A stretch of 32,000 nucleotides of DNA from Candidatus Kuenenia stuttgartensis (GTDB lineage Bacteria > Planctomycetota > Brocadiia > Brocadiales > Brocadiaceae), in the NCBI RefSeq assembly GCF_900232105.1, contig NZ_LT934425.1, positions 3,390,001-3,422,000 of the forward strand, read 5' to 3'. The notes under the pieces are model-generated. The model had not been told where the DNA came from. It was given only the letters and a program-made list of their open reading frames with translations, and ran no database searches. The translations under genes were made by a program, and so were the position numbers. The stretch's first letter is position 1. Each line of letters starts with the position of its first letter. Shown piece by piece: positions 1 through 23,250 of this stretch.

Positions 1-476
1 ATTATGACATACAGGAGGACATCCGAAAATCTTTTTTTATATTTTATCGTACTATTCTTCATGTACCCGCTCCTGAGACATAATTATAATATTGACACTA
101 AACGTATGTTTGATATAATTTCTTTTCGTTACCAAACCTGCCGAAAAATTCAATTATTTGCATCTCTTAGTGAACAATCTTCAAAACAAATTGACGCATA
201 TTAATGACACAAAACAACTGATTATTGTTAAAAAAATTGTGCAGAGGATAATATTCCAATGCCACAATTCCTGCCCTGTACGGAAAAATGTCAGCATTAA
301 AGAACAGCGTTTTTCTCTTTTTCCTCATTTTAAGCAATATTTTATATAATACTGGTTTGTGCATGGAATTTCAAAGGAATCGTAAGATGCCCTCCCTCAA
401 AGGGAGGATTCGTAAATTTAAAATCGTAAATGGATTTTTATAAAATACTTAACAATTTTAACGGGCTTATAGATAA

Positions 477-1904
477 ATGGGTTACATAAAAGAACATTGT
501 GGTTTGTTTGGTGTTTACGGCTGTGAAGATGCTGTTGAGAAGGTGTATTATGGGTTATATTCTTTACAGCACCGTGGGGAGGAAAGCGCCGGGATTGCCT
601 CAACGGATGGCAAAGATATCATTTGCCGTAAAGGAATGGGGTTGATCAGTGACGCCCTGGATGCCCGTATGCTTAAATTCTTAAAAAACCCCGTTGCGAT
701 CGGGCATGTGCGATATTCTACTTTTGGTTCGAGCAATATTGAAAATGCACAGCCTATGCTGGTGGATTATTATCGGGGGAAAGTGGCAATTGCCCATAAT
801 GGACAATTGACTAATGCAAAAAAACTGCGGGATGAGTTTGAAGGAAATGGGTCGATATTCCATACAACTTCTGACACTGAAGTAATTGTGCACCTGATGG
901 CGAAGCCTTCGGTTTCAAGGCAAAGCGGGCTGCCAGGCGTATTAAATCAACTGAAAGGGGCATTTTCATTGTTGATTTTAACCCCAAATGAGATGATTGG
1001 AGTACGTGATCCGTATGGCTTCAGGCCGCTTTCTTTGGGAAAACTTAATAACGGATATGTTTTTGCTTCTGAAACATGTGCCCTTGACCAGATCGGCGCA
1101 GAATACGTTCGGGATGTGCAGCCGGGGGAAATAGTCTCTATAAGTAAAGGCGGCCTTCGCAGTGAATTTTATAGTAATCAAAAAAAACATGCCTTCTGTA
1201 TATTTGAATTGGTGTATTTTTCCCGACCCGATAGCAGCGTGTACGGGGAAAGCGTCCATTTGTTCCGTAAGAAATTAGGCGCGAAGCTTACGGAAGAGTC
1301 GCCTGTTGATGCTGACGTGGTAATTTCCGTGCCGGAAGGGGGAAATTCCGCAGCAATTGGATATTCGCACGCCGCATCAATACCTTTTGACAGAGGTTTT
1401 ATCAGAAACCATTATGTTGGAAGGACTTTCATCCTGCCTCAGCAAGATATGAGACATCGTTTTGTCGAGCTGAAATTAAATCCGCTGAAAGAGACAGTGG
1501 CTGGGAAACGTGTTATTGTAATAGATGATTCGATTGTGCGGGGTACTACCTCGAAATCCAGGTTTGGTTTATTAAGAAAAGCAGGTGCGAAGGAAATACA
1601 CGCGAGGATTAGTTGTCCGCCCCACAGGCATCCCTGTTATTATGGAATTGATTTTCAGCAAAAAGGCGAACTTATTGCAGCCAATAAAACGGTTGAAGAG
1701 ACAAGAAAATTTTTGAATGTAGAGAGCCTGAGTTATCTTAGCGTGGAAGGAATGATGAGCTGTACCACACAGCCGAGGCAGAATTTCTGCAACGCTTGTT
1801 TCACCAGTGATTATCCAACAAACGTTAATGAAGAAATGGATAATGTAACGGATAGTTTTTCCGTTGATGAAGCGGAAAGATTGAGCCGATGTGTAATTAA
1901 ATAA
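477..1904 (+). CDS. purF: amidophosphoribosyltransferase (glutamine PRPP amidotransferase)
   Basis: 475-aa ORF. N-terminal ...EHCGLFGVYG places the Ntn catalytic Cys of class II amidotransferases. PRTase loop VIVIDDSIVRGTTS. C-terminal Cys residues (CPPHRHPCYYGID, CNACF) fit Fe-S type PurF. Confidence 0.95.
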   Translation: MGYIKEHCGLFGVYGCEDAVEKVYYGLYSLQHRGEESAGIASTDGKDIICRKGMGLISDALDARMLKFLKNPVAIGHVRYSTFGSSNIENAQPMLVDYYRGKVAIAHNGQLTNAKKLRDEFEGNGSIFHTTSDTEVIVHLMAKPSVSRQSGLPGVLNQLKGAFSLLILTPNEMIGVRDPYGFRPLSLGKLNNGYVFASETCALDQIGAEYVRDVQPGEIVSISKGGLRSEFYSNQKKHAFCIFELVYFSRPDSSVYGESVHLFRKKLGAKLTEESPVDADVVISVPEGGNSAAIGYSHAASIPFDRGFIRNHYVGRTFILPQQDMRHRFVELKLNPLKETVAGKRVIVIDDSIVRGTTSKSRFGLLRKAGAKEIHARISCPPHRHPCYYGIDFQQKGELIAANKTVEETRKFLNVESLSYLSVEGMMSCTTQPRQNFCNACFTSDYPTNVNEEMDNVTDSFSVDEAERLSRCVIK

Positions 1905-1913
1905 ACTCCCCCC

Positions 1914-2921
1914 TTGGATTATAGGCAAATGTATTTCATAAATCCCCTCTATCTGGTAAAAGGTATATTTGGCAGAACATTTTATATCTTTCCGGAACGA
2001 CCGGAACGTATTCAGATAGAAATTACCAACCGCTGTAATTATAGCTGCGGTATGTGCCCGAGAGAGACATTCAACCTGCCGGAAAAAGACATTCCTTTTG
2101 ACCTCTTTAAACATATCATTGACAGGATTGATTCCCGTTATAACGTTACGCTTACCGGCTGGGGAGAACCTTTGTTGCATCCGCAATTAATGGAAATGAT
2201 TGCCTATACAAAAAACAAAGGGCATAAAGTCGGATTAACGACGAATGGTTTATTGCTGGCGCAATATACAGAAAAATTCATAGAAATACGGTTAGATAAA
2301 CTTACCATTTCGTTGGATAGTATCGATGATGAATCTGGCGCAAAAGAGGGACATCCGTCCAGCAAGGTAGTGCAAAAGAATATAGAGTCGCTTGTTAAAC
2401 TGCGGGGTACAAAACCCATTCCTGTTGTTACCATACAAATTACCATGCACGATGAGAAACAGTGTTTGGATGCCGTTCGTTTGGCGGGAGAAATTGGCGC
2501 AGACCGTGTTTATTTAATACGGTTAAATATGCCTATGGATAAAAGCGGTTTTAAAAGGCCTGGCTTAAAAGAAGAACTGGAAATTTATGAGAAATCGGAG
2601 CAAATAGCCAGTGAATATGGATTACAGGTGGACAACAATTATACCGCATTTGACAATATTTTGTTCCGTTTCCTCTATAAAAAAATGCGTCCGGCAATGT
2701 ACCGGTTTGATAAATATTGCCCTAAGCCATATGATTACTTGTATATTAACATTGACGGCAGGGTTACGCCATGCTGCGACCTTCCCAGGCATGAAGTCGG
2801 CAATATTTTAAAAGAAGACATTGACGAAATCTGGAATAGTGAAAATATGCAGTATTTTCGCAAAAACCAGAATGATATTTGCGGCAATTGTGACGCATTG
2901 CGGCTGAAACAAATTGGATAA
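1914..2921 (+). CDS. radical SAM protein with C-terminal SPASM/twitch-like Cys-rich domain
   Basis: CX3CX2C cluster motif in IEITNRCNYSCGMCPRE. C-terminal CPKPY...GRVTPCCD...CGNCD auxiliary-cluster pattern. Begins 9 nt after the purF stop. The 1914 start is TTG; an in-frame ATG lies at 1929. Confidence 0.85.
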   Translation: MDYRQMYFINPLYLVKGIFGRTFYIFPERPERIQIEITNRCNYSCGMCPRETFNLPEKDIPFDLFKHIIDRIDSRYNVTLTGWGEPLLHPQLMEMIAYTKNKGHKVGLTTNGLLLAQYTEKFIEIRLDKLTISLDSIDDESGAKEGHPSSKVVQKNIESLVKLRGTKPIPVVTIQITMHDEKQCLDAVRLAGEIGADRVYLIRLNMPMDKSGFKRPGLKEELEIYEKSEQIASEYGLQVDNNYTAFDNILFRFLYKKMRPAMYRFDKYCPKPYDYLYINIDGRVTPCCDLPRHEVGNILKEDIDEIWNSENMQYFRKNQNDICGNCDALRLKQIG

Positions 2922-2934
2922 TGATAAATTGAAT

Positions 2935-3129
2935 ATGGTTAAAAATAGTAAACTACTCCAGCAGTTTGAACGAAGCCTTAAAAAAGAAAAACCTGACTAT
3001 CAGAAAAACATGGAAATCTTTGAAGGAATGTATAAGGAGGCGGTTTATCTCAACGCAATCCCTTTGAAAGACCCGCTGGATGGGCTGGAAGTAGATATAA
3101 AAATTGCCCGAGTGAGCAATAGTGTTTAA
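2935..3129 (+). CDS. small hypothetical protein, likely the upstream partner of a now decayed nucleotidyltransferase gene
   Basis: ORF in the track (2914..3129); first in-frame ATG at 2935. C-terminal ...PLKDPLDGLEVDIKIARVSNSV. It overlaps the start of a truncated NTase-like frame, an operon-style arrangement. No family confirmed. Confidence 0.45.
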   Translation: MVKNSKLLQQFERSLKKEKPDYQKNMEIFEGMYKEAVYLNAIPLKDPLDGLEVDIKIARVSNSV

Positions 3130-3380
3130 AGAACTTATTGAAAGAATTGCTGTGAGTTTGGATCAGGATATGATCCCTTATATGATCATCGGCGGGCAGG
3201 CGGTTCTTTAAAAAATCCTTTGCTACTGTATCAAATCGGGAAATATGGTGAACCTGTCTATGAGAAAGATGAAGAAGTTTACATTTGCTTCTTAAACTGG
3301 GCACGGTTTACCTACGAGGACAATATGAGGTTTCACAAGGGATTGGACGAATTAATCATGGAAGACCTGAAAAAGCTATG
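3122..3380 (+). pseudogene. decayed nucleotidyltransferase-like fragments
   Basis: GTG at 3122 opens VFKELIERIAVSLDQDMIPYMIIGGQAVL and stops at 3209-3211, i.e. only the N-terminal strand/helix of an NTase-like protein. A second frame reads ...GKYGEPVYEKDEEVYICFLNWARFTYEDNMRFHKGLDELIMEDLKKL*, which resembles the C-terminal helices of MNT-type proteins such as 20941..21345. Confidence 0.4.
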
Positions 3381-3417
3381 ATTATTCCTGACTGGATTAA
3401 CTGGAAAAATTGGGTGG

Positions 3418-3468
3418 CACAGACAAACCCTGTTCCTGTGCGCTTTGAACAGGAATTGTTTGTCTGTG
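3418..3468. repeat. interrupted 18-bp stem hairpin (CACAGACAAAC-CCTGTTC / GAACAGG-aatt-GTTTGTCTGTG)
   Basis: Inverted repeat read directly: 3418-3435 pairs with 3447-3468, with a 4-nt bulge. The outer arm recurs at 24816..24840 with a compensatory change. Confidence 0.7.
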
Positions 3469-3530
3469 TTTAGTGAAAATAGTTCTTATAAAGAGAAATA
3501 TGTCAATAAGTGAAATTTTTAAAGTATCAT

Positions 3531-4040
3531 ATGAGTGACGACAATAAATCACACATCCCTAAACTCATTCTTGCTGGTGTCATTGGAGTGCTTGCTGGAA
3601 GCTGGTGGAAATCTGCTAAGATTGCAGAAAGTAAGAAAAGTAGAGCCGAATGTGAAAGCCCGGATTTTGTGAATGAGGCATGTTACAAAATTAATGAGCT
3701 ATTGAATGAATTAGAGATTTTAGATGAAATGGAAGATGAAGATGATTTCCGTGATGTTTTGGCTGAATATTTAACTAAATATACAGATTTTGAAATTGAA
3801 CTTACACCAAATACTTTAATTGGGCAACCAGATATTTTGATTGGTGGTGTGTTAGCCCTTGAAGTAAAGTATAATCCCAACAAATCTGAAATGGATCGTT
3901 GTATTGGTCAATGTGCTGGTTATTCAAGGGAATGGGTAACATGGATAATTCTTTATGATACACCTCCTAGTCGAATCAATTATATATCTGAAGTATTAGT
4001 CGATAAAGGGTTGGACTATATTCCAATTATTTCGTTTTAA
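3531..4040 (+). CDS. membrane-anchored PD-(D/E)XK nuclease-fold protein (hypothetical)
   Basis: One N-terminal hydrophobic helix (IPKLILAGVIGVLAGSWW), an acidic linker, then E (LAEYL), GQPDILIGG and LALEVKYN followed by a helix with Q (CIGQCAGY). That is the alpha-beta-beta-beta-alpha-beta order and D...E-x-K spacing of restriction-endonuclease-like folds. The track start 3510 is GTG; ATG at 3531. Confidence 0.55.
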   Translation: MSDDNKSHIPKLILAGVIGVLAGSWWKSAKIAESKKSRAECESPDFVNEACYKINELLNELEILDEMEDEDDFRDVLAEYLTKYTDFEIELTPNTLIGQPDILIGGVLALEVKYNPNKSEMDRCIGQCAGYSREWVTWIILYDTPPSRINYISEVLVDKGLDYIPIISF

Positions 4041-4292
4041 GAAGATAACTTGTTATTTGTAAATTCTTTATCCTTTTCAGAAACGAGATAGTTCACTCTT
4101 ACGATGTGAATATTTACTTGGTCAGGAGTAAAAGAAATATAAATGTGATAATTCGGTTTTATAAGAAGTACGTGGAAAAGATTTAATTACTGTTGTGGGA
4201 GTCGCTTTGATTTAAAAGTTGGAAATTGATGCGTAATAAAATTGTAAGGCGGGTGGGTATTTATAAGTCTCAAACTATACATCCAAACCAGT

Positions 4293-5072
4293 ATGGGTAC
4301 ACATAATAAGATGGATTTTTATGATTCTTTAGCTGTATTGGGGGCTTTAGCGTGGCTTGTTCCATTGATTTCTTGGATAAGAAATTTATTGTTAAAGCCT
4401 AATTTGTCTATAATTTCCCATAAAGAATTAGAGATAGGATATTCCATAGATGGGCCAATATTAAATATAAACTTGGCATTTTCTGTTGAAAAAAAAGAAG
4501 CTTTAATTAAAAAAATTGATATTATTTTAAGACACGAAAACAACGAAACGCATCAATTTTTATGGGATTGGTTCGAAGAGCAATTTCTTCAAATGGAAAT
4601 ATCAGATCCAGATTTGGGTTCAATGCCGTTTAAAAAAACCCAAAAGGCAATAGCTATCAAAGTTCTAACAGATACATTAATAGAAAGGAAATTTGGATTT
4701 CAAAAAGAAGAATTTAAAGAGGCATATAACAAATTATTTAATTCCACTAATGAAATTTACAATAATATTTATCAAAGTAGCGCGGGCATTGATAGTTTTA
4801 AAATATCAAAGGAGTATAATGAATTTTTGGATTACTTCAAAAATTCATTCATCTGGAAGGTTGGAAAGTACTCGGCGAAAATTAAAGTATATATAGAACA
4901 TGTCGTAAAACCTTTTGAACATGACTTAAATTTTCAACTTACAAATTTAGAACTGAAAGGTCTAGAAACTAATATTAATACTTGCCAAAAAACTATAAAA
5001 AACCACTATACAAAAGAAGACCCTGATTATAAAGCAGATTGGAAATTAGTAAATCCTTATAAAATTGAATAA
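4293..5072 (+). CDS. hypothetical protein with single N-terminal TM helix
   Basis: 259-aa ORF in a very AT-rich stretch. Hydrophobic segment FYDSLAVLGALAWLVPLISWI, then a Lys/Glu/Asn-rich soluble part with no motif I recognise. Confidence 0.55.
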   Translation: MGTHNKMDFYDSLAVLGALAWLVPLISWIRNLLLKPNLSIISHKELEIGYSIDGPILNINLAFSVEKKEALIKKIDIILRHENNETHQFLWDWFEEQFLQMEISDPDLGSMPFKKTQKAIAIKVLTDTLIERKFGFQKEEFKEAYNKLFNSTNEIYNNIYQSSAGIDSFKISKEYNEFLDYFKNSFIWKVGKYSAKIKVYIEHVVKPFEHDLNFQLTNLELKGLETNINTCQKTIKNHYTKEDPDYKADWKLVNPYKIE

Positions 5073-5137
5073 AAATGAGGTGCAACTAATTAAAATGACG
5101 CACGTAATTATATTCATAGCTGTAAAAGGTGGTATAT

Positions 5138-5461
5138 ATGTCCCAATTTCCAATTAAAGGTTGGCCTGCCGATGTGGTAAATAATCTCAATAATTTGATT
5201 TCGGATATTATCAGGAGACGAGAAATTAAAGAGTTTTATATTGGACGGACCAATGATTGCAATGCTACCCAATCGAGGCATGGTTGTGATGATATTTTTG
5301 CATTGTACGAAACTAATAGTTCCGAAAATGCTATTACAGTTGAGGATACCTTGATAAGAAAATTTTTTGGCCATCCGAAGTGTAATAATGATAACAGTCA
5401 TGGAGGCGGTGGAGTATCGAGCGAGTATATATATTATGTTTATCTGGCATCTTGGTACTAA
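5138..5461 (+). CDS. small hypothetical protein, tentatively GIY-YIG-like
   Basis: ATG 5138 follows AAAGGTGG. The sequence EFYIGRTND..QSRHG...ALYE...VEDTLIRKF...NNDN...YIYYVYLA carries YIG, R, H, E and N in the order of the GIY-YIG/Uri core. The first GIY strand is absent at the N-terminus. Confidence 0.45.
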   Translation: MSQFPIKGWPADVVNNLNNLISDIIRRREIKEFYIGRTNDCNATQSRHGCDDIFALYETNSSENAITVEDTLIRKFFGHPKCNNDNSHGGGGVSSEYIYYVYLASWY

Positions 5462-5574
5462 TGATTGTGAGTTGAATAGATTGAGTGAAGCAAAGCATCT
5501 CTAACAAAAACGTGCATTTGCCAACGGACAAGGAATGATAATGATGGGTTTGCTTCACTTAACTCATCCTTGAC

Positions 5575-5599
5575 CATTTGACATCGAAAATGTCAAATG
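5575..5599. promoter_or_regulatory. perfect 10-5-10 palindrome, candidate operator of the downstream TA operon
   Basis: CATTTGACAT-cgaaa-ATGTCAAATG ends 14 nt before ATG 5613. It overlaps TTGACC/TTGACA -35-like hexamers. Confidence 0.45.
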
Positions 5600-5612
5600 A
5601 AAGTATTTAGGA

Positions 5613-5897
5613 ATGTCTAAAATACAAAAGATACGGCAGAAGATTATTGATAAGGACTATTACATCTCATCCCATGCTGAAGATGAAATGTTAGACGATA
5701 AATTGGAACGTGCAGATATTAAGAATGCTATTCTTAAAGGGAAGATTGTAAAGAAATTTACAGAAGATGTAAGGGGGACAAGGTATCGAATAGAAGGAAC
5801 TGCCAGAGACGATAGAATAATTCATATCATTTGTAGGTATAGAGAAGATGGCAGCCTTATTATAATAACGGCATATGCTTTAACGGAGGAGATATGA
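5613..5897 (+). CDS. DUF4258-family putative toxin
   Basis: 94 aa. ...YYISSHAEDEMLDDKLERADIKNAIL.G.I...RYRIEG...RIIHIICRY...LIIITAYAL matches the DUF4258 pattern. A zinc-ribbon antitoxin-like gene follows after 3 nt. Confidence 0.75.
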   Translation: MSKIQKIRQKIIDKDYYISSHAEDEMLDDKLERADIKNAILKGKIVKKFTEDVRGTRYRIEGTARDDRIIHIICRYREDGSLIIITAYALTEEI

Positions 5898-5900
5898 GAT

Positions 5901-6122
5901 ATGATATGTGAATTTTGTAAAGGCAATACGGTAAAGAAAAAAGTAAAAAGGCAACACTGGCTTCATGGCAAGTTATATATTGTAGAAAATGTTGAGGCTG
6001 AGGTTTGTCCTGAGTGCGGTGAGCGTTATTTCCATGCTAAGGTTCTCGATGAAATAGACCACCTTCTTGAAAAGGAACATGACGTAAAAGAACGAATAAA
6101 TGTGGAAGTCGTTAGCCTATAA
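5901..6122 (+). CDS. YgiT-type zinc-finger protein (MqsA N-terminal-domain-like antitoxin)
   Basis: 73 aa with CEFC...CPECGE zinc ribbon, then YFHAKVLDEID. Tightly coupled to the DUF4258 gene. Confidence 0.75.
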   Translation: MICEFCKGNTVKKKVKRQHWLHGKLYIVENVEAEVCPECGERYFHAKVLDEIDHLLEKEHDVKERINVEVVSL

Positions 6123-6277
6123 ATTATGATTACTTTCTCGTAATTTGCTGATACATACAGTTTGTCTGACTTCCAGGATAAGACAAAAGAAGCAAGTTTT
6201 GAGGTCGAAACTAAGTCTAAGACTATGTATTACGCAGTGGATAAAAAAAAGACCAATAATAAATCGGAAGATAAACT

Positions 6278-6502
6278 GTGGAAATAGCCACAAGAATTGG
6301 TGTCGATGAGAAAGTGCGTTTTGGTAAACCTGTCATTACAGGGACACGAGTTCCTGTTGATCTTATCCTCGGTAAATTGGCAGGGGGGATGACTTACGAA
6401 TAAGTTATGGTTGAGTATGAGATTACACGCGAGGATATACTGGCGACTCTCGATTATGCGGCCAAAACATTGGCAAGTGAAGAAATCAGGGCAGTAAGTT
6501 AA
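6278..6502 (+). pseudogene. DUF433-like gene with an in-frame TAA
   Basis: GTG 6278 reads ...VRFGKPVITGTRVPVDLILGKLAGGMTYE, then TAA (6401-6403), then in the same frame VMVEYEITREDILATLDYAAKTLASEE...*. Together the two halves reproduce the DUF433 pattern (G.PvI.GTRipV..il..l..G.s.eeil.ey..lt.edI.aal.yA). Confidence 0.6.
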
Positions 6503-6612
6503 CATGCTGTAGTGTTAATTATTTGTTGGAGGATTTTTAGGTATGAGAAAAATAGTTACCTATGGAAAATATAGAAAAGTTAATATGATATAAAATATGG
6601 AAAGTATATATC

Positions 6613-6861
6613 ATGGACAAAATAGAAAAAGCTATTGAAACAACTGCTACTATTAATGCAAAAAGACAACTTGTATTAGATGAACCATTACCTGTTGCTG
6701 GTCCCCAAAAAGTTCGTGTTATTATATTATTGCAAGAAGAAACAGACATAGATGAAAAGGAATGGCTCAAGTTGGCAAGTGTGAATAATGCGTTTGATTT
6801 TTTAAAAGAACCTGAAGAGGATATTTATACTTCTTTTGATGGAAAACCATTTCATGACTAG
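6613..6861 (+). CDS. putative antitoxin of the adjacent MazF/PemK toxin
   Basis: 82 aa with an acidic C-terminus (...FDFLKEPEEDIYTSFDGKPF). Overlaps the toxin start by 8 nt. Confidence 0.6.
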   Translation: MDKIEKAIETTATINAKRQLVLDEPLPVAGPQKVRVIILLQEETDIDEKEWLKLASVNNAFDFLKEPEEDIYTSFDGKPFHD

Positions 6862-7198
6862 GGGTAAAGTAGTATTAGTTAATTTTCCTTTCGACGACCT
6901 TTCAACATCAAAAGTACGACCAGCAGTATGTTTGACGAATCCAATTGGTTCACACTCTCATGTTATACTTGCATTTATAAGTAGCAGAATTCCATCAGAT
7001 TTACTCGAAACAGATTTAATAATAGATACATCACACGAAGGCTTTAGTGGAACTGGTTTAAAGGTGGCTTCAACTTTGCGATTGCATCGTTTAATGACGG
7101 TAACGACTTCACTGTGCCAACGTGAATTGGGAGAGTTATCTCCCAAATTTCTGAGTGAAGTAAATAATAAACTAAAGAAGTTGTTTTGTATAAGATGA
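6854..7198 (+). CDS. mazF: MazF/PemK-family endoribonuclease toxin
   Basis: MTRGKVVLVNFPFDDLSTSKVRPAVCLT...HVILAFISSR... matches the PemK/MazF N-terminal signature (RG.iv.v.fp.....K.RPavvl). ATG 6854 preferred over the track start 6836. Confidence 0.8.
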   Translation: MTRGKVVLVNFPFDDLSTSKVRPAVCLTNPIGSHSHVILAFISSRIPSDLLETDLIIDTSHEGFSGTGLKVASTLRLHRLMTVTTSLCQRELGELSPKFLSEVNNKLKKLFCIR

Positions 7199-7238
7199 AG
7201 ATAACCATTATTCCTGAATTTGATTAATAAATACAATT

Positions 7239-8660
7239 ATGAAAATTACTTTTCTAGTACCACCACCCATTGATGGAAATATCCCGGAGCGGGTTGCCGG
7301 GTGTGCATACCTGCTCTATTATGTCCCGAATATCTTCCTCCTCAGCGCAGCGGCTGTTCTGGAAAAGGCAGGTTGCGAAGTTCGATATATTGAAACTACC
7401 ATTAAAAAATGGGACCGAAGACAATTCCGGACGTTCCTCAGGGAAGATTTGAGTGATATTTACAGCTTCTACTCAGTCAATCTCTCACAAAAGACCGATA
7501 TGCAGGCATTGCATGACATCCGTGAGATAAGGGGAGATATACCGGTTGTATTTTTTGGCCCTGCACCATCAGACAGACCGCTGGAATTTGTTGCAGACGA
7601 CGATACCTATGCCGTCAGGGGTGAACCGGAATACACGATGCTTGAACTGGTAAATGCATTAGAGGATAAATCAGCCATTAACGGTATCAAAAGCGTGTCT
7701 TTCAGAAGCAATAATGGAATTATCAATAATGATACCAGAGAGCCAATAGAAAATCTGGACGAACTTCCCTTTCCCGCAAGACATCTTTTGGAAGAGAAGG
7801 ACGTCTATTATAATCCCAAACTGGGGATGCGGCCGTTTACTGCCGTTTGTACTTCACGGGGTTGTTCCTACCGCTGCATTTACTGTGTTCCTTCTTCACT
7901 GAGCTTCTCAAGAGAACTTGAATACAAGCATTACTTTGACAAAAAACCGCCCGTAAGGAAGCGGTCGTCTGAGAATATCATTGGGGAATTTGCCTTATTG
8001 AAATCGCAGGGGTATAAGGCAGTGAATATGCAAGATGACCAATTCGTGTGGGGAGAAGAAAGGACTATTAAAATTTGCGAGGGCATTAAAGATTTAGACA
8101 TAGTATGGGGGTGTTCCGCAAGGTCGGATCATCTGACGGAACCCATAGTAAGGGCAATGGCTGCGGCAAATTGTAAATTTATTGATCTTGGCGTGGAATC
8201 ATTTAACCAGGAAATACTGGATTATGTGAAAAAGGATATTGACGTTAAAAAGAATGAAGAGGCGATACGACTGGTAAAAAAATATGGCATATCTGCAAAA
8301 ATAAATATTATGTTCGGGGCTTCTCCATTAGAAACAATGGAAACCATAAGAAAAAATACAGAAGAAGTGAAACGGTTAAAGGTAGATCAGGTAATGTATA
8401 ATATCGCAAATCCATTTCCCGGGACTGATTTTTATAAAACGGCGAAAGAAAACAATTTATTTGTTTATGGTGACTATAAACCGGTGAATGTGGCAAAGGA
8501 AGCCAACATAGCCTATCCCCATCTGAGCAAGACAGACCTTGAAAGAGCGGTGCGCAGTGCCAATTTTGCATTTTTCCTTTCCCCCCGTTTTGTTCTTAAA
8601 AATATCAGAAGAATCGGTTCGCTTGATGCTTTGAAAGCGATGTTTCGAAAGCTTTTCTAA
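7239..8660 (+). CDS. B12-binding-domain radical SAM protein
   Basis: 473 aa. The N-terminal about 150 aa look Rossmann-like and are followed by the CX3CX2C motif in TSRGCSYRCIYCVPS. Size and layout fit class B radical SAM enzymes. Confidence 0.85.
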   Translation: MKITFLVPPPIDGNIPERVAGCAYLLYYVPNIFLLSAAAVLEKAGCEVRYIETTIKKWDRRQFRTFLREDLSDIYSFYSVNLSQKTDMQALHDIREIRGDIPVVFFGPAPSDRPLEFVADDDTYAVRGEPEYTMLELVNALEDKSAINGIKSVSFRSNNGIINNDTREPIENLDELPFPARHLLEEKDVYYNPKLGMRPFTAVCTSRGCSYRCIYCVPSSLSFSRELEYKHYFDKKPPVRKRSSENIIGEFALLKSQGYKAVNMQDDQFVWGEERTIKICEGIKDLDIVWGCSARSDHLTEPIVRAMAAANCKFIDLGVESFNQEILDYVKKDIDVKKNEEAIRLVKKYGISAKINIMFGASPLETMETIRKNTEEVKRLKVDQVMYNIANPFPGTDFYKTAKENNLFVYGDYKPVNVAKEANIAYPHLSKTDLERAVRSANFAFFLSPRFVLKNIRRIGSLDALKAMFRKLF

Positions 8661-8662
8661 CA

Positions 8663-9691
8663 ATGAAATTTTCAATCCTTATACCCGCTTATAACGAAGA
8701 AAAATCCATTTCCACCTGCCTTGATTCTCTTCTTTCCGTGACTTATCCCGACAAAGAAATTATTGTTATTGACGACGCCTCTTCGGACCATACCGTAAAA
8801 GAAGTCGAAACGTTTGCAAGCAGGGGCGTTATATTGGTAAAAAGAGAAAAAAACGGCGGGAGGGCTGCCGCCTTGAACTCGGGATTATCCCGGGCTACCG
8901 GAGAGATTGTCGTCACAACCGATGCGGATACCGGCGTTTCTCCCCATTGGTTAACCCTGTTTGAACGTCATTTTGCAGATGAAGAGGTTATTGCGGTTGG
9001 GGGCGCTTATAAAGCGCAAAACAAGGGTAATCCGCTGGCAAATGCAACAAGTGTATTAGATCAGATTTTGAACGGCACATTCAGAAAAACGTTTATTCCG
9101 AACAAAGTATCCGGAGTAAACTCTGCGATACGCAGGGATACATTGCTGGATTTGGGAGGGTTTAATGAAAGCGCATGGTGGAGCGAAGATTCCGAATTAG
9201 GATGGAAACTGGATAAAACCGGCAAGGTCATTTATGATCCGGAGAATGTTGTATATACACAATATCCTGATACATGGGAAGGCATATGGAGGAGGAAGTT
9301 TTACTGGGGATATGCGATGGGATTGAAATTCCGTCAGCATATGCCTTTCAGACTGAAATTATGGATACGTCCCACCGTATTTATGGCACTTTTTGTGAGC
9401 CTGGTTGTGTTTTTGGCAACGATACCCTGCGGAATGAGGGTATACTTTGTACCCGGATTATTTTTTGGAACATTATTGAGTGCATTAACATTAGTATATG
9501 TCCCGATAGGCGCAATCGTTATGATAAGAACGGGGGATACCGGTTTGGCAAAAACATTGCCGCTACTGGCAATCCTGCCTATTTTTCGGGAATTTGCGTA
9601 TGTGTACGGCATGTTTCTTGGTTATTGTAAAGGTAAGCCATCCGCCTTGAAACCTTCATGGAAGAGGAAACAGGGAAAGAAAAAATTATGA
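8663..9691 (+). CDS. family 2 glycosyltransferase with C-terminal membrane helices
   Basis: ILIPAYNEE...IIVIDDASSDHT, TDADT, WSEDSELG and RRKFYWG (Q/RxxRW-like) motifs, with about 3-4 hydrophobic helices in the last 120 aa. Starts 2 nt after the radical SAM stop. Confidence 0.85.
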   Translation: MKFSILIPAYNEEKSISTCLDSLLSVTYPDKEIIVIDDASSDHTVKEVETFASRGVILVKREKNGGRAAALNSGLSRATGEIVVTTDADTGVSPHWLTLFERHFADEEVIAVGGAYKAQNKGNPLANATSVLDQILNGTFRKTFIPNKVSGVNSAIRRDTLLDLGGFNESAWWSEDSELGWKLDKTGKVIYDPENVVYTQYPDTWEGIWRRKFYWGYAMGLKFRQHMPFRLKLWIRPTVFMALFVSLVVFLATIPCGMRVYFVPGLFFGTLLSALTLVYVPIGAIVMIRTGDTGLAKTLPLLAILPIFREFAYVYGMFLGYCKGKPSALKPSWKRKQGKKKL

Positions 9692-10758
9692 AAGAAAAAA
9701 CAAAAAAGAGTGTTTCATATAAAGATGCCGGTGTTGATATTGATACGAAAGGTTGTTTTACGTCGAATATCTATTCGAAAATGCAAACAACATTTGACGG
9801 CAGGGTAATTGAGAACCCAGGGGGATTTGGCGGGTTGTTTGCATTAAATTCAAGGCTGAAAAAATATCGACAGCCCGTTCTTGTTTCTTCCTCCGATGGC
9901 GTGGGCACAAAATTAAAAATAGCCTTTATGATGAATAAGCATGACACCATTGGCATTGATTTAGTGGCCATGTGTGTGAACGATGTTGTAGTGTTGGGTG
10001 CCGAGCCTTTGTTTTTTCTGGATTACCTTGCAAGCAGCAAAATCATACCTGAAGTTCTTCATGAAGTTATAGATGGTATCGTTGAAGGGTGCCGCCAGGC
10101 CGGTTGTTCACTCATTGGAGGTGAAACACCTGAAATGCCGGGATTTTACCAAAAAGGAGAATATGACATCGCTGGTTTTGTTGTGGGGGTGGTAGAAAAA
10201 GACGAGATTATTAATGGTAAAAACATTACACCGGGAGACGTTGTATTGGGGTTAGGTTCCAACGGCATTCACAGCAACGGGTATTCACTTGTTCGAAAGA
10301 TTTTTTTTGAGGAAGCGGGAATGAAGCCTTCCCGGAGTTTACGGAAATATGGGTTGAAAACAACCCTGGGAGAGGAGATTCTTAAGCCTACCAGGATTTA
10401 CGTAAAAGCAATTCTCAAAATATTAAATAAATATAAAAATAAAACTGTTATTAAGGGGATGGCGCATATCACCGGCGGCGGTTTGCTGGAAAATATACCG
10501 AGAATCCTGCCGGAAGGGTGCTCGGTGAAAATAGACAAAACCAGGTGGGACATTCCGGCAATATTTAAAATAATGCAGGATATCGGCAATATTAATGAGC
10601 GGGAAATGTTTCGTGTTTTTAATATGGGGATAGGTATGGCGCTGATTGTTTCTGCGTTGGATGTGAAAAAAATAATGAATGACCTAAACGCTGCCGGTGA
10701 ATCAGTATCGGTTATTGGCGAGGTAACTGAGGGGGAAAGAAGCGTACAGGTTATTTAA
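9688..10758 (+). CDS. purM: phosphoribosylformylglycinamidine cyclo-ligase (AIR synthetase)
   Basis: MKEKTKKSVSYKDAGVDID..., SSSDGVGTKLKIA, VAMCVNDVVVLGAEPLFFLDY, MAHITGGGL. ATG 9688 overlaps the GT2 stop (ATGA); the track start 9658 is upstream in frame. Confidence 0.93.
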   Translation: MKEKTKKSVSYKDAGVDIDTKGCFTSNIYSKMQTTFDGRVIENPGGFGGLFALNSRLKKYRQPVLVSSSDGVGTKLKIAFMMNKHDTIGIDLVAMCVNDVVVLGAEPLFFLDYLASSKIIPEVLHEVIDGIVEGCRQAGCSLIGGETPEMPGFYQKGEYDIAGFVVGVVEKDEIINGKNITPGDVVLGLGSNGIHSNGYSLVRKIFFEEAGMKPSRSLRKYGLKTTLGEEILKPTRIYVKAILKILNKYKNKTVIKGMAHITGGGLLENIPRILPEGCSVKIDKTRWDIPAIFKIMQDIGNINEREMFRVFNMGIGMALIVSALDVKKIMNDLNAAGESVSVIGEVTEGERSVQVI

Positions 10759-10820
10759 CGGAATCAATTAAATAATAGAGGAATTTTCGTTTTATGTAAA
10801 AACGAAATACCAGCAAAAGA

Positions 10821-10855
10821 AAAATCCCCCTGAACCTTATGTTCAGGGGGATTTT
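10821..10855. terminator. bidirectional rho-independent terminator between purM and the convergent OMP gene
   Basis: AAAATCCCCCTGAAC-cttat-GTTCAGGGGGATTTT: a GC-rich stem with an A-run on one side and a T-run on the other. Confidence 0.7.
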
Positions 10856-10896
10856 CATTTATCATTAGCAATAATTGAATTCCTTTGTTTTTAAAC

Positions 10897-12165
10897 CTAG
10901 AATAAGTATTCTACGCCTGCCCCTACAATTACCTCTTCGTCAGCGCTGTCATCACCGGCAAAATTAATATACCTGAATTCAGGCCTGAATAAGAGATTTT
11001 CTCTCACCTTTATGTTTGCAGTGACGGTTACGTCCCATACTGAAGTATCAAACCATCTTACACCATCGGTATCGTCGAGGTATTCGTATCGAACAACACC
11101 CTGGAACCAGTCGGTAAAATCATATAAACTATATCCGGCAACGCCCCACCAATGGCCGGTAGTACCAGTGGCCATACCGCTGGAAATATCCATTGCGGCA
11201 TCTTCTGCAACACCCCAATCTCCATTGAACATTAACTTCAACTTGTTTGTTAACTGGTATGATGCTACCAGGTCAAACATTTGAGTTAAACCACCGGTAG
11301 AACTGCTTCGTTGAGCATCGCTCGCAATCGGCCCCTTTTCCTGATCCCAACCTTCAGCGCCGTGAATACCTGCTAAGGAAACAAAGGTCTTTTCTGATGG
11401 TGAAGTATAAGAAATGTACCATCCGAGAGACTTTGCGGAGTTGTTATCGATGAAAGAGTCCCATCCGTTCACCAAATAAAGTGCGGCATAAACATTGTCC
11501 GTTAAATCATATCCTGCCTTAATTCCGGTGTGGGTAAAAGGGATTGCATTGTTATAAAGCGTGCCGTGCTGATAATTAGGGTTCCCTATGTTTTCAACCA
11601 GCTCTAATCCAATCCATGTATACATCTTACCTGCGGTAATGGTTAATCCTTTACCTATTGGCGCAATCCATGAAATATTTGCTGTGGCTACGGTAAAAAT
11701 ATCGTCTCTGTCGGGATCATTCGTACCCCGGGGAGTTGCTTCTCCCAAGAAAGTAATTCTTTTCGCCTTTTCACCAAAATAGGTATGTAACTGCCAGCCT
11801 ATAGGGTGTTCTTCAGTGGCTTCCTTATCTAAGAAAAGGGTAAAGCTCTCGAAGGTTAATGAATTATTTTCGTTTTCACCAATAAAGTTCAAGCCACTCG
11901 CAAGTTCATCCTGTTGAGGAGAATTGCTATGTTTCTTGAAACTGTAAAAATAATTCACATCCAAAAATCCGCTCAAAGAAACGTTTTTTAGGCCACCTAA
12001 TAAGGGTGAATCCCACACGGTTTCGTTTACCTCTGCTAATATTTCCTCTTTTAACTCTGCCTTTAATGCTTCTCTGTCAAAATCCTGTGCAAAAGTAGTT
12101 TGACTTGCTAAAAAAATTCCTGCAGCAAGCAGTGGAAGCATAAAAGAAAACTTTTTATGTATCAT
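10897..12165 (-). CDS. outer-membrane beta-barrel protein (putative porin)
   Basis: Signal peptide MIHKKFSFMLPLLAAGIFLASQTTFAQ. Alternating aromatic/Gly-rich strands. C-terminal ...GAGVEYLF with the terminal Phe typical of OMPs. Confidence 0.7.
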   Translation of the reverse strand: MIHKKFSFMLPLLAAGIFLASQTTFAQDFDREALKAELKEEILAEVNETVWDSPLLGGLKNVSLSGFLDVNYFYSFKKHSNSPQQDELASGLNFIGENENNSLTFESFTLFLDKEATEEHPIGWQLHTYFGEKAKRITFLGEATPRGTNDPDRDDIFTVATANISWIAPIGKGLTITAGKMYTWIGLELVENIGNPNYQHGTLYNNAIPFTHTGIKAGYDLTDNVYAALYLVNGWDSFIDNNSAKSLGWYISYTSPSEKTFVSLAGIHGAEGWDQEKGPIASDAQRSSSTGGLTQMFDLVASYQLTNKLKLMFNGDWGVAEDAAMDISSGMATGTTGHWWGVAGYSLYDFTDWFQGVVRYEYLDDTDGVRWFDTSVWDVTVTANIKVRENLLFRPEFRYINFAGDDSADEEVIVGAGVEYLF

Positions 12166-12572
12166 AATTACTTTTCTCCTATTCTTGTAAGATTGTTAAA
12201 AACCAATTCTAACGAAACGTAAGATTGTTGTAAAATATCCCTCCTTTCCTCTTCCTCTTTTTTACTATTAAAAGATTTTTACATAAAACACACAATACTA
12301 CGTACGAAATAGACGAAAGACCCAAACAACACTTCTTAGTTCCGTGAAAATAATAAGCGAGCAAAGAGAGTGCCTTTGCAATAATATATCATTATATATG
12401 AATAATTTATTATTATTAAACTTATTTTTGCAAAAAAATTAATACAACTACTTATAAAATAACACTATATGGCATAGGTATACAAAAGAGGTTAAAATGA
12501 AAAATCTTGCATACATTTATAAAGTAAGCATATAATTGGTCATTTTTTATAAAATGGGATATATTTGCCATT

Positions 12573-12634
12573 AAGAGTGGCCGATATGCTCCATTAACAC
12601 TTCAAGAGTGGCCGATATGCTCCGTTAACACTTC
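12573..12634. repeat. 31-bp tandem direct repeat x2 (one A/G difference)
   Basis: AAGAGTGGCCGATATGCTCC[A/G]TTAACACTTC occurs at 12573-12603 and 12604-12634 in the porin/fhs divergent intergenic region. Confidence 0.9.
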
Positions 12635-12646
12635 ATACGTGTTATA

Positions 12647-12655
12647 GGGGGGGGG
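12647..12655. repeat. homopolymeric G9 tract
   Basis: Read directly: ttataGGGGGGGGGtatttt, 12 nt after the tandem repeat. Confidence 0.9.
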
Positions 12656-12724
12656 TATTTTACAGTTATTGACTTTTTTGTAAACAAAATTCGCAGGAGG
12701 GTATTGATTAGGGAATCATTTTTC

Positions 12725-12752
12725 TTGACCTTAACAGTTTTACAAGTATAAT
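12725..12752 (+). promoter_or_regulatory. sigma70-like promoter candidate for fhs
   Basis: TTGACC (12725-12730), 16 nt spacer, TATAAT (12747-12752). It would give a leader of about 140 nt ending in AAAGGAGG before ATG 12896. Confidence 0.4.
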
Positions 12753-12895
12753 CGAGCGATTTATATGCCGCAGAGACCATAATACCACGATAGTGAGTGA
12801 TAAGAGAGACACTTAGGTATGTATCTTAGATAGCAAAAATACTTTTTTAATTTATTACAAATGTAAAATTTACATTAAAAGGAGGCGTTAATATT

Positions 12896-14659
12896 ATGTC
12901 ATTAGATCCTACCAAATTTGCGGATTGGCAGATAGCGGAAGAAGCAGAAAAGGGGATGAAGACTGTATATGAGTTAGCGGATAAATTAGGTCTTGCGAAA
13001 GAAGAGCTGCTTCCTCATGGGCACTATGTAGCCAAGGTTGATTACAAGAAAATATTGAAGCGATATGAAGGCAAACCTGACGGCAAATTTGTCGATGTAA
13101 CCGCCATAACTCCTACGCCACTTGGTGAAGGCAAATCAACAACCACGATAGGGTTGGTGCAGGGACTAGGGAAAAGAGGCAAGAACGTTATAGGTACAAT
13201 ACGGCAGCCGTCCGGCGGCCCTACGATGAACATAAAAGGGTCGGCAGCCGGAGGAGGTCTTTCGCAGTGCATCCCCCTCACGCCATTTTCTTTGGGGCTT
13301 ACCGGTGATATTAACGCGATAATGAATGCGCATAATTTGGCGATGGTGGCGCTTACCTCAAGAATGCAGCACGAATTTAATTATGACGATGCGACACTTG
13401 CCAAAAAAAACCTGAGGCGGTTGAATATTGACCCCCACAGGGTTGAAATGAAATGGATCATAGACTTTTGCGCCCAGTCGCTTCGCCAGATTGTGATTGG
13501 ATTGGGGGGCAAGATGGACGGGTTCATGATGGAGTCCGGATTTGCCATAGCAGTTTCTTCAGAAATCATGGCAATTCTCTCTGTTGCCAAAGACCTGAAA
13601 GACATGCGTGAACGCATGGGAAAGATCGTAGTGGCGTATGACAAATCAGGAAAGCCTGTAACAACGGCTGATCTGGAAGTAGACGGCGCAATGACGGCAT
13701 GGATGGTGGAGGCTCTCAATCCGAACCTGATGCAAACTATTGAAGGTCAGCCGGTCTTTGTGCATGCTGGTCCTTTTGCCAATATTGCTATCGGGCAGTC
13801 TTCAATTGTGGCGGATAGGATTGCTTTGAAACTAGGGGATTACGTGGTTACCGAATCAGGATTTGGCGCGGACATCGGATTTGAGAAATTCTGGAATCTG
13901 AAGTGCCGTTTTTCTGGCAGCAAACCGAATGCTGCTGTATTGGTTGCTACTGTGAGGGCGCTCAAGTGTCATGGGGGTGCGCCTGTGCCGGTGCCGGGAC
14001 ATCCGCTTGATCCGTGCTATAAGGAGGAGAATGTCGGGTGGGTGGAAAAAGGGACGGAAAACCTGACCCATCTTATTAATGTTGTGAAAAAGGCGGGGAT
14101 TAATCCGGTAGTGTGTATTAATGCATTTTATACGGACACAGAGCCGGAGATTAATGCTGTAAGGAGGCTTGCGGAGCGGGCAGGGGCACGCGTTGCGTTG
14201 TCAAAGCATTGGCTAAAGGGGGGAGATGGTGCGGTGGAACTTGCTGATGCAGTAATTGATGCCTGCAATGAGCCAAATGACTTTAAATTTCTGTATGAAC
14301 TCAGCACGCCGCTAAGAACGCGTATAGAGTTAATTGCGGAGCAGGTGTATGGTGCGGACGGCGTGGATTACAGTCCGGACGCTTTAGCAAAAGTAAAGGC
14401 CATGGAAGCTGATCCTGAAACTTCAAAGCTTGGAACATGCATGGTGAAGACGCATCTTTCACTCACGGATAATCCCAATATAAAGGGAGCGCCAAAGAAC
14501 TGGAGGCTGAGTATCCGGGATATTCTGACATTTAAGGGTGCGGGGTTTGTGGTGCCCATTGCGGGGAATATTAAACTGATGCCGGGAACATGTTCCGATC
14601 CGGCGTATCGCCGCGTTGATGTTGATGTGGAAACCGGAAAAGTAAAAGGGCTTTTCTGA
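12896..14659 (+). CDS. fhs: formate--tetrahydrofolate ligase
   Basis: 587 aa. ...[17 protein letters not shown]..., [10 protein letters not shown], ...THLSLTDNP..., PGLPxxPA-like tail [16 protein letters not shown]. Full-length FTHFS pattern. Confidence 0.95.
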
Positions 14660-14719
14660 TATATTTTATTATTTTTTTCAACATGATTTAAAAGGCTGCA
14701 CATTTCAGGGCAAAAGAAG

Positions 14720-14760
14720 AAGGCTGGCGGATGATAATGAAGTCCACAGCCTTTTTTTTT
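14720..14760 (+). terminator. rho-independent terminator after fhs
   Basis: AAGGCTG...CAGCCTT stem followed by a T9 run (14752-14760). Confidence 0.6.
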
Positions 14761-14781
14761 GAGTGCCTTGTTAACAATGCC

Positions 14782-14811
14782 TTGACATAAACATTCATCT
14801 TCGCTTAAAAT
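14782..14811 (+). promoter_or_regulatory. sigma70-like promoter candidate upstream of secA
   Basis: TTGACA (14782-14787), 18 nt spacer, TAAAAT (14806-14811). Implies a 5' leader of about 235 nt before secA. Confidence 0.4.
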
Positions 14812-15053
14812 GAAATGCCTGTTACCTTTGGTTACTAAGGAGCGCGAAAATACCCCTTCGGCAGTCGTTCCTGACAGAGAGGGAAATCTTAAGATTTGGA
14901 ACAAGGATTTCCCCGCCGTCTGCCCTGAGCGGAAGATTTCTTGCTATTTCTTTTCCTGAAATGATAAAAGCGAGGGGGGGCGAAATAACAATTACAGGTG
15001 AAATCTGTCGTTGTTTAATTATAAAAATTCTTTTTTAGCATTATTTTGAAATT

Positions 15054-23071: not shown

Positions 23072-23193
23072 ATCTTATCCGGAGTGGCAGAGGGACTGGC
23101 CCTGTGAAGCCACAGCAACCGGCCTGTTCAGATTACGTCTGAACATGGTGCAGGTGCTAATTCCTGTCTCAAGTTTTTGGGAAAAGATAAGAT
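23072..23193 (+). promoter_or_regulatory. SAM-I (S-box) riboswitch aptamer
   Basis: P1 CTTATC (23074-79) pairs with GATAAG (23186-91). Conserved cores are in the canonical order: GGAGTGGCAGAGGGACTGGCCCTGTGAAGCCACAGCAACC, then a P3 hairpin, then GGTGCTAATTCCTG, then AAGATAAG. Confidence 0.85.
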
Positions 23194-23205: not shown

Positions 23206-23250
23206 AAAAGCCTCATCCTATCTTATTTTTAGGAAAGAGGCTTTTTTTAT
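23206..23250 (+). terminator. riboswitch expression-platform terminator (with competing antiterminator)
   Basis: AAAAGCCTCaTCCT...AGGAaaGAGGCTTTTTTT. TAAGATAGGA (23188-97, sharing the P1 3' strand) can pair with TCCTATCTTA (23216-25), the classic SAM-off switch geometry. Confidence 0.7.

Follow-up and report, generated by a model that had tools for sequence, protein, structure and literature searches.

Three Independent Small Genes in a Probable Cargo Hotspot of Candidatus Kuenenia stuttgartensis: A Presumed Defence Module Reconsidered

The described systems closest to the genes considered in this study are of four kinds: defence nucleases of the restriction-endonuclease fold, such as Shedu (SduA/DUF4263) and the Mrr_cat type IV enzymes; the small GIY-YIG families T5orf172 (PF10544), MUG113 (PF13455) and UPF0213/YhbQ (1ywl, 1zg2); the single-gene cassettes of integrons; and the chromosomal hotspots in which defence and toxin-antitoxin genes collect. 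The genes themselves are three open reading frames (ORFs) on the forward strand of Candidatus Kuenenia stuttgartensis, here called ORF1, ORF2 and ORF3, whose products are 169, 259 and 107 amino acids (aa) long. They were found in a stretch of 32,000 nt (contig NZ_LT934425.1, positions 3,390,001 to 3,422,000), which I will refer to as the window and whose own numbering is used throughout (Table 1). An initial annotation, made from the sequence alone, took them to be a candidate defence or abortive-infection module. The present analysis leads elsewhere. The region from 3.4 to 7.2 kb is probably a variable cargo hotspot between conserved core genes, within which ORF1, ORF2 and ORF3 are three independent single-gene units.

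Each of the three resembles its described counterpart up to a point. ORF1, like Shedu and the Mrr_cat enzymes, appears to possess a restriction-endonuclease-fold core with an E/D/ExK/Q site and occurs as a solitary gene within defence islands. Shedu proteins carry variable N-terminal regions. Unlike these enzymes, ORF1 matches no SduA model nor any other PADLOC or Pfam nuclease model (a protein profile comparison with Mrr_cat by hhalign gave Probab=0.07, that is, 0.07%), and it is far smaller: its core spans about 100 aa and follows a family-specific N-terminus, GxxxGxWW and then KKSRAE. The best structural matches to ORF1, weak as they are (E 0.06-0.5 against the PDB), come from XPF/Mus81/ERCC1, Hjc, T7 endonuclease I and VRR-NUC, which are similarly compact and single-domained; unlike XPF/Mus81-type nucleases, ORF1 lies in defence islands and not in repair loci, has no sequence similarity to them and bears an extra hydrophobic N-terminus. 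ORF3 shares with the GIY-YIG families named above the order of the YIG strand, the Arg/His helix, the Glu and the Asn, and is close to UPF0213 proteins in size, but where the canonical domain has its N-terminal strand ORF3 has a helix of about 30 residues, a YVY strand stands at the C-terminus, and there is no DNA-binding extension. Homologues of ORF2, like the cassettes of the Vibrio cholerae superintegron, are compact, self-contained, AT-rich single ORFs, bounded by attC or VCR (Vibrio cholerae repeat) sites in two unrelated arrays. The locus as a whole has what is expected of a defence or toxin-antitoxin hotspot, conserved core flanks around strain-variable cargo that is more alike between strains than the flanks are, and in this respect nothing about it is unusual.

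The view that must be weighed before any other is the original one, that ORF1, ORF2 and ORF3 form a single anti-phage or abortive-infection system in which one or more membrane sensors and two nucleases act jointly. The genes are indeed contiguous, on one strand, AT-rich, and situated inside an island of toxin-antitoxin and defence type, and since no known system matches them, such a system would be new. To assess their association, hidden Markov models of the three families were run on every ORF of the window and of 27 fetched loci, then on those of L028-L032, L038 and L039 (loci are cited by such numbers). The trio was found together, in the same order, only in the window and in L001 and L002, two ENA contigs of near-identical synteny; L017 keeps the pair ORF2-ORF3. 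In the genome most closely related to that of the window, a Candidatus Brocadiaceae metagenome-assembled genome (MAG; L018), purF and the radical SAM/SPASM gene are again followed by an ORF1, 88% identical, and both ORF2 and ORF3 are absent. L015 has ORF1 and ORF3 without ORF2, with a different gene, encoding 217 aa and frameshifted, in between. L009-L011 hold ORF3 at the same hotspot without ORF1 or ORF2, the order being radical SAM/SPASM gene, 217-aa gene, ORF3, 275-aa gene, GmrSD, DUF433 and PIN. ORF3 has still other neighbours in L012 and L016, and its 43%-identical relative P0163 (24 contigs, six of them displayed) stands alone between SulP transporter and FG-GAP genes, with gaps of about 270 nt on either side and no partner. 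ORF1 occurs without ORF2 and ORF3 at 10 genome loci, including some in Acidobacteriota, Spirochaetota, Micavibrio and the Brocadiaceae MAG, and ORF2 without ORF1 and ORF3 in L005, L007 and L013, in part as a stand-alone integron cassette. All-against-all BLAST of the neighbours of the three families brought out no common partner.

The sizes of the families are unequal as well: like (word-indexed) searches gave 137 homologues of ORF1 at 90% clustering, 24 of ORF2 and 10 of ORF3. So are their divergences within a single pair of genomes. Between the window and L001, dS (synonymous substitutions per site) is 0.43 for ORF1, 0.08 for ORF2 and 1.10 for ORF3, with 0.09 for the nearby DUF4258 gene. Because their homologues lack conserved linkage and their dS values are discordant, ORF1, ORF2 and ORF3 do not make up a module; the trio fails as a unit and consists of three independent genes. 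The initial annotation had itself named a lack of conserved linkage among homologues as one of the observations that would overturn its claim, and outside the window, L001 and L002 that linkage is absent. A three-gene system is in my judgment very unlikely.

The sequence of the hotspot bears the marks of piecemeal assembly. The island from 3458 to 6555 is about 90% identical in nucleotide sequence to L001 and L002, as against only 72-80% for the core flanks (1940-2911 and 7239-8668), and therefore recent horizontal exchange of cargo among related lineages is indicated. On the left, the radical SAM/SPASM gene is 72-73% identical to its counterparts in L002, L010 and L018, and on the right, the B12-binding radical SAM gene is 78-80% identical to its orthologues in L001 and L002. 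Within the island, ORF1 and a short stretch on either side behave as one mobile unit, for synteny between L018 and the window breaks 144 nt past the gene. The initial annotation had cautioned that the gap between ORF1 and ORF2 might separate them, and the caution was apt: the gap measures 252 nt (4041-4292) and contains a module boundary, since the similarity to L018 stops at 4184. The body of ORF3 with its 3' flank forms a second unit, sharply bounded and divergent in the midst of near-identical flanks, from which I conclude that this allele and its flank were swapped alone. The cargo of the hotspot in relatives varies by strain and includes GmrSD, PIN or PemK toxin-antitoxin pairs, DUF4238 and HNH genes; in L001 and L009, DUF433, a 78-aa gene and PIN take the place of the PemK pair of the window. 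No recombinase or mobile-element boundary was found in the island.

An allele replacement so precisely bounded raises another view of ORF3, that it is a selfish, free-standing gene of the homing-endonuclease kind, of no benefit to its host, which would spread by cleaving DNA close to its place of insertion and having itself copied there, with ORF1 and ORF2 as unrelated cargo. The membership of ORF3 in the clan of GIY-YIG and T5orf172 agrees with this, as do its varied contexts, directly beside different genes. In phages, genes for T5orf172 nucleases are reported to occupy the boundaries of genetic exchange (PMC10448857), which would accord with the same view. ORF3 and ORF1, however, have no relatives in the phage records searched, and none of the three ORFs has any in IMG/VR (nor has ORF2 in the plasmid records searched). 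Canonical GIY-YIG homing enzymes carry a DNA-binding or targeting domain, and the 107 residues of ORF3 include none. Finally, a ratio of nonsynonymous to synonymous substitution (dN/dS) of 0.18-0.25, together with a stable single chromosomal site on 24 contigs in the case of P0163, fits a gene maintained by its host. I consider selfish ORF3 unlikely, and return to the reading of three independent cargo genes, to be characterized one by one.

For ORF1, the initial annotation had proposed a PD-(D/E)XK nuclease-like protein on the basis of a motif set (E, PD, ExK, Q) picked out by eye. The set is real, consisting of E70, PD100-101, ExK111-113 and Q127. Across 71 homologues, E70, P100, D101, E111, R123, G126, Q127, Y131 and T137 are invariant, and K113 is conserved in at least 90%. 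An AlphaFold model (predicted local distance difference test, pLDDT, 84.8; predicted template modelling score, pTM, 0.81; confident from residue 30 on) places the motif residues on two helices (70-84 and 118-134) and two strands (102-104 and 108-114) of a predicted alpha-beta-beta-beta-alpha-beta core. Foldseek comparison of the model with the PDB returned nothing at E<=1e-3; the weak matches include nuclease domains of ERCC1/XPF/Mus81/FANCM, EcoT38I, BsaWI, Can2, Cdn1 and I-Bth0305I. Against predicted viral structures, two matches had E<=1e-3, and the viral matches that carry names are mostly restriction endonucleases, PD-(D/E)XK nucleases, VRR-NUC, endodeoxyribonuclease I, MmcB-like, DUF559 and YqaJ-like proteins. 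Matches to the restriction-endonuclease fold thus predominate, in line with the original proposal. Pfam found nothing recurrent among all members of the ORF1 family, and profile searches of the PDB sequences produced no significant match for the families of ORF1, ORF2 or ORF3. Because of its motif and topology I accept ORF1 as a probable PD-(D/E)XK-type protein, the statistical support for the fold being modest, and from the same motif and model it would be expected to act as a nuclease.

The N-terminus of ORF1 is a more equivocal matter. A transmembrane helix had been read there, and the family does conserve a hydrophobic segment, followed by a near-invariant KKSRAE; but the segment is short, just 15-16 residues rich in Gly and Ala (consensus hLxWAxGGxLAGAWW), and weakly hydrophobic. 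Its Kyte-Doolittle value in a 19-residue window is 1.29 (family median 0.97; median in a 15-residue window 1.59), and AlphaFold draws no helix over residues 1-24, where pLDDT falls below 50. The basic residues that the initial annotation saw past the segment, and used to place the nuclease-like domain in the cytoplasm, are a property of the family, 4.35 after the segment vs 1.21 before it, but membrane anchoring is itself doubtful. The N-terminus may possibly serve as a membrane tether for a cytoplasmic nuclease or else as a zipper for oligomerisation.

What ORF1 might do is suggested by its neighbours in other genomes. Known or candidate defence genes adjoin ORF1 homologues in most of the independent contexts (the last seven lines of Table 1), and in L003/L024 and L022 the defence context is weaker or there is none. 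From the repeated occurrence of ORF1 as a lone gene within defence islands I infer that it could be a one-gene anti-phage or abortive-infection nuclease. A defence role, as was first suggested for the trio, is therefore plausible for ORF1 by virtue of its neighbourhoods, and not for the three genes as one module.

The assignment of ORF3 depends on the family more than on the protein in the window, which matches no Pfam model at E<=1. An exhaustive profile search extended the family to at least 256 clusters at 50% identity. When its members were compared with Pfam, 19 of 77 matched T5orf172, 12 of 77 MUG113 and 9 of 77 GIY-YIG, with best E-values from 4e-6 to 8e-5, and a two-domain relative, P0284, scored 31 bits against MUG113, above the cut-off of 22.3 bits, and passed the cut-off of T5orf172 also. 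By these sequence criteria ORF3 is classed as a member of the GIY-YIG superfamily. The order YIG, R-H, E, N that had been noticed by eye is borne out within a subfamily of 21 sequences, where N84 is invariant, Y34, R37, H48 and E69 reach 90% conservation or more, and FYIGRT and the C-terminal Y100-V-Y102 are conserved too; in the 11 closest sequences R47 never varies. In the wider family, the catalytic-type residues are less conserved than in the subfamily. ORF3 would, from its sequence, be a nuclease.

The possibility of a circular permutation, also raised by the initial annotation, arises from the ends of the protein. No GIY strand precedes YIG in the first 30 residues of ORF3, which instead form a helix of about that length. 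When the ORF3 profile is aligned with a canonical GIY-YIG protein of 94 aa, the alignment splits in two and the order of the parts is exchanged: the C-terminal strand of ORF3 lies on the GIY strand, and the YIG strand and helix fall at their canonical place. (The reference is the product of a UPF0213-like gene, L028 1272-1556, come upon by chance.) ORF3-type domains are also repeated in tandem within single polypeptides, twice in P0284 (223 aa) and three times in P0246 (350 aa), and a tandem domain repeat is the classical intermediate of circular permutation. A re-permuted profile was made from 53 members by placing the C-terminal strand ahead of YIG, across a junction of my own design, and compared with 177,635 PDB sequences. 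Its top two matches were the small GIY-YIG proteins 1ywl (E=0.088) and 1zg2 (E=0.38); the best GIY-YIG match in the PDB to the native profile had E=1.2. The swapped alignment, the tandem forms and the ranking by the re-permuted profile all favour the proposal, but none of the signals is significant, and the evidence is suggestive of a circularly permuted GIY-YIG domain, its first strand transferred to the C-terminus. Two other architectures were seen among the relatives of ORF3: P0187 has an ORF3-type domain fused to a class I SAM (S-adenosylmethionine) methyltransferase, and P0220 (1603 aa) has 20 matched stretches.

ORF2 is the one of the three for which membrane attachment is well supported. 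The N-terminal transmembrane helix of the initial annotation is upheld by hydrophobicity (Kyte-Doolittle 1.73; family median 1.91), by conservation in the family (21 of 23 relatives at 1.6 or more) and by the AlphaFold model, in which a helix spans residues 4-33 and the remainder is predicted as a beta-sandwich with two helical inserts (overall pLDDT 86.4). Positive charges number 3.0 past the helix vs 0.3 ahead of it. Foldseek found generic immunoglobulin-like sandwiches only. The N-terminal domain of GH123 had E=3e-5 but a template modelling score (TM-score) of 0.33, and the other matches were the cytoplasmic domain of KirBac, TMEM106B/LEA-2, Spo0M and ApaG. No catalytic fold is evident from the model and Foldseek, and Pfam gave nothing recurrent among all members of the family.

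The relatives of ORF2 are informative as to how it may travel. The homologue in L005 is a single-gene cassette between attC-type repeats of 128 nt in a chromosomal integron array, and that in L013 is a cassette between VCR-type repeats on a contig of Vibrio cholerae, in the company of DUF3709, DUF645 and acetyltransferase cassettes typical of the superintegron of that species. (The array in L005, at 1-16753 of a 3.8-Mb JGI contig, is of the sedentary chromosomal kind, and attC-type repeats of about 128 nt occur in it at least 12 times; among its cassettes are the toxin-antitoxin genes ParE and YoeB, and it has taken up an IS3-type insertion.) In the recent literature, phage resistance is reported to be a frequent property of integron cassettes whose function was unknown, and the cassette lifestyle of ORF2 fits with this. 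The window differs from the integrons. No attC-like hairpin (RYYYAAC...GTTRRRY) was found in the gaps beside ORF2 and no repeat family in the island, and no integrase domain was present among the window proteins scanned; an integron origin for the island was rejected on these grounds.

Some observations weigh against taking the three genes as independent, or against what has been said of each. The adjacency of ORF2 and ORF3 on the same strand, with a gap of 65 nt (5073-5137), is kept in four contigs (the window, L001, L002 and L017), and therefore the two may be co-transcribed or cooperate in this lineage in particular. In every contig of Brocadiaceae type, ORF3 lies directly downstream of some gene, at 18-66 nt, a possible sign that it belongs to a gene pair whose other member varies. 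A scan for promoters and terminators found sites no commoner than in shuffled sequence, and so speaks neither for nor against a shared transcription unit. The permutation of ORF3 has weak sequence signals behind it, with E=0.088 at best. No member of the three families matches PADLOC, so that the defence role amounts to guilt by association.

The first two of these observations are the substance of one more alternative, in which ORF3 together with ORF2, or with whatever gene is upstream of it, forms a pair of toxin-antitoxin or sensor-effector type with an exchangeable partner, ORF1 being separate. The upstream gene, always on the same strand in those contigs, is ORF2 in the four just listed, that of the 217-aa protein in L009-L011 and L015, and that of an 88-aa protein in L012, and the remainder of the island abounds in toxin-antitoxin gene pairs. 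These partners are nevertheless unrelated in sequence, P0163 has none across its wide gaps, the integron relatives of ORF2 are without ORF3, and the ORF3 allele was exchanged without ORF2. I assign very little probability to such a pair and find independent single-gene units the likelier account. As to the 217-aa neighbour of ORF3 in L009 and L015, a pattern HNHP...SxxD can be read in it by eye, resembling JAB/RadC, and Pfam and PADLOC have no match for it. The hotspot that holds it in Hainich groundwater contigs (L009 68-4007; also L010 and L011) includes GmrSD, a type IV restriction enzyme, and has PIN as its right-hand toxin where the window has PemK.

Table 1. Features of the window (positions in window coordinates) and neighbours of ORF1 homologues in other loci.
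Feature or locus	Position	Strand	Remarks
ORF1	3531-4040	+	Gly-zipper-like hydrophobic segment at residues 9-26; KKSRAE motif; nuclease-like core, residues 70-169 (predicted)
ORF2	4293-5072	+	Single-pass membrane protein (predicted), transmembrane segment about residues 11-33; beta-sandwich domain with helical inserts
ORF3	5138-5461	+	107 aa; without N-terminal GIY strand; ends in conserved YVYLAxW strand
ORF1 mobile unit	3446-4184	+	Gene with about 85 nt upstream and 144 nt downstream; 90.5% identical to L018 (flanking core genes 72-78%)
Divergent block, ORF3 body and 3' flank	5177-5535	+	63-80% identical to L001; both flanks 92-100% (60-nt sliding comparison)
Hairpin-forming intergenic element, about 105 nt	5470-5574	+	Travels with ORF3; predicted 12-bp outer stem
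DUF4258 and MqsA-like zinc-ribbon antitoxin pair	5613-5897 and 5901-6122	+	Pfam E 2.2e-17 and 1.5e-5
82-aa putative antitoxin and PemK/MazF-like toxin	6613-7198	+	Pfam PemK E=2e-13
Left core flank: radical SAM/SPASM gene	1914-2921	+	Identified by Pfam; preceded by purF (477-1904)
Right core flank: B12-binding radical SAM gene	7239-8660	+	Followed by GT2 glycosyltransferase and purM
L006			ORF1 homologue directly between TIR_2 and Mrr_cat genes
L019			ORF1 homologue beside ThsB, PDC-M50A, SLFN_AlbA_2
L020			ORF1 homologue beside Panacea toxin-antitoxin, PDC-S39
L021			ORF1 homologue beside type III restriction enzyme fragment
L023			ORF1 homologue beside BilC, BilD
L025			ORF1 homologue beside mad2-like methyltransferase, AAA_34 helicase, HNH
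L026			ORF1 homologue beside caspase-HamB-like helicase, STAND NTPase

The reading frames themselves are secure. A GTG at 3510 offers ORF1 an alternative start, but the ATG at 3531 is favoured, because most homologues are 166-172 aa long. For ORF3, family alignments favour the ATG at 5138, which has a Shine-Dalgarno sequence, AAGGTGG, 7 nt upstream. The initial annotation allowed that the three might be decayed gene fragments. They are not, given dN/dS values against orthologues of 0.10-0.26 for ORF1 and 0.30-0.33 for ORF2 along with that already cited for ORF3 (0.10-0.33 over all); each of the three is under purifying selection. Its description of three same-strand ORFs where the window is richest in AT agrees with their coordinates and with the GC profile, which reaches its minimum, 0.27-0.31, at 4001-5000 and is about 0.40 elsewhere. 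No Pfam, NCBIfam or PADLOC match at E<=1 was found for ORF1, ORF2 or ORF3 beyond those at chance level, and there were 0 matches at E<=1 to the protein models of PADLOC-DB 2.0, which cover Shedu and other named defence systems, just as the initial annotation, which knew of no named system of this composition, would lead one to expect. The toxin-antitoxin genes it saw around the trio are recognised by Pfam too, as DUF4258 with an MqsA-like protein and as PemK. The labels of the right flank (B12-binding, Radical_SAM, GT2) were taken from the precomputed annotation of the orthologues in L001 and L002, and the AIRS/purM gene there is at 9658-10758. Elsewhere the window carries bacterial housekeeping functions (SecA, Kdo transferase, an OmpL-like porin, FTHFS, MetK, purF, purM), along with a SAM riboswitch.

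Between ORF3 and the DUF4258 pair lies the hairpin-forming element of Table 1. It follows ORF3 in four contigs: the window, L001 (2613-2723), L015 and L017 (1429-1540). L015 has copies at 1119-1231 and 2801-2895, one of them upstream of ORF1, so that the block of ORF1, the frameshifted 217-aa gene and ORF3 is bracketed there by direct copies of the element. There is little covariation in the stem. The element might serve as a substrate for recombination, or else be a terminator or small RNA. As an attC site it was rejected, for its GTTRRRY...RYYYAAC cores have the wrong polarity. Further on, at 5578-5596 and 17 nt upstream of the DUF4258/MqsA-like pair, a perfect palindrome (TTGACAT-CGAAA-ATGTCAA) was noticed by eye, a plausible candidate for the operator and -35 region of that operon.

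A few other features were noted in passing. An ORF of 71 aa at 2914-3129 is 83% conserved in L001, and short broken frames at 3130-3480, which look by eye like a truncated gene of nucleotidyltransferase type, are the debris mentioned by the initial annotation; within 2914-3500, L018 aligns weakly and only to 3323-3405. The SAM riboswitch (RF00162, 88 bits) is at 23072-23193, upstream of a gene for a pyridoxal phosphate-dependent enzyme (23250-24518), and the MetK gene is at 19092-20258. At 28443-29549 an N6/N4 DNA methylase gene on the forward strand overlaps the end of a convergent ORF of 345 aa on the reverse strand (29521-30558), where GC is 0.31 (29501-30000); the two (28443-30558) may be a restriction-modification pair.

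Taken at its most complete, the reading of independent cargo would run as follows. Related strains fill the hotspot with differing sets of small self-contained genes, and ORF1, ORF2 and ORF3 probably came to be stacked beside toxin-antitoxin pairs with no operon-encoded system among them. ORF1 might be a stand-alone mini PD-(D/E)XK nuclease whose cytoplasmic domain is fastened to the inner membrane or associates with it, or which self-associates by way of its Gly-zipper segment, and it might act by itself against phage or in abortive infection. ORF2, anchored at its N-terminus with a beta-sandwich predicted to be cytoplasmic, could, by a loose inference, be a sensor at the level of the membrane, an exclusion factor or an abortive-infection factor. 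ORF3 would be a minimal GIY-YIG-type nuclease domain, its first beta-strand supplied from the C-terminus, that moves alone and is replaced allele for allele. Nuclease activity, membrane topology and any anti-phage role are predictions in all of this. Bolder still, and to my mind doubtful, is the proposal that ORF1 represents an undescribed anti-phage system of wide distribution and of one gene (a mini PD-(D/E)XK nuclease whose conserved glycine zipper keeps it at the membrane or brings about its oligomerisation), that ORF3 is the first natural circularly permuted GIY-YIG domain, reached via tandem-repeat forms, and that ORF2 could be a new integron-borne membrane factor of defence or exclusion.

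What appeared to be a three-gene defence system is thus a false lead, and in its place are three candidates that can be tested separately. The ORF1 family, absent from Pfam, NCBIfam and PADLOC and found repeatedly among known defence genes in several phyla, offers the usual starting point for a new single-gene defence. The ORF2 family provides a cassette common to an anammox-type genome, another environmental integron and Vibrio cholerae, and so may tie in with current work on phage-resistance cassettes. The ORF3 family is likely a topological variant of a classic nuclease fold. Nothing is overturned by these results, which extend known superfamilies and illustrate how a hotspot for defence and toxin-antitoxin genes may be a mosaic gene by gene.

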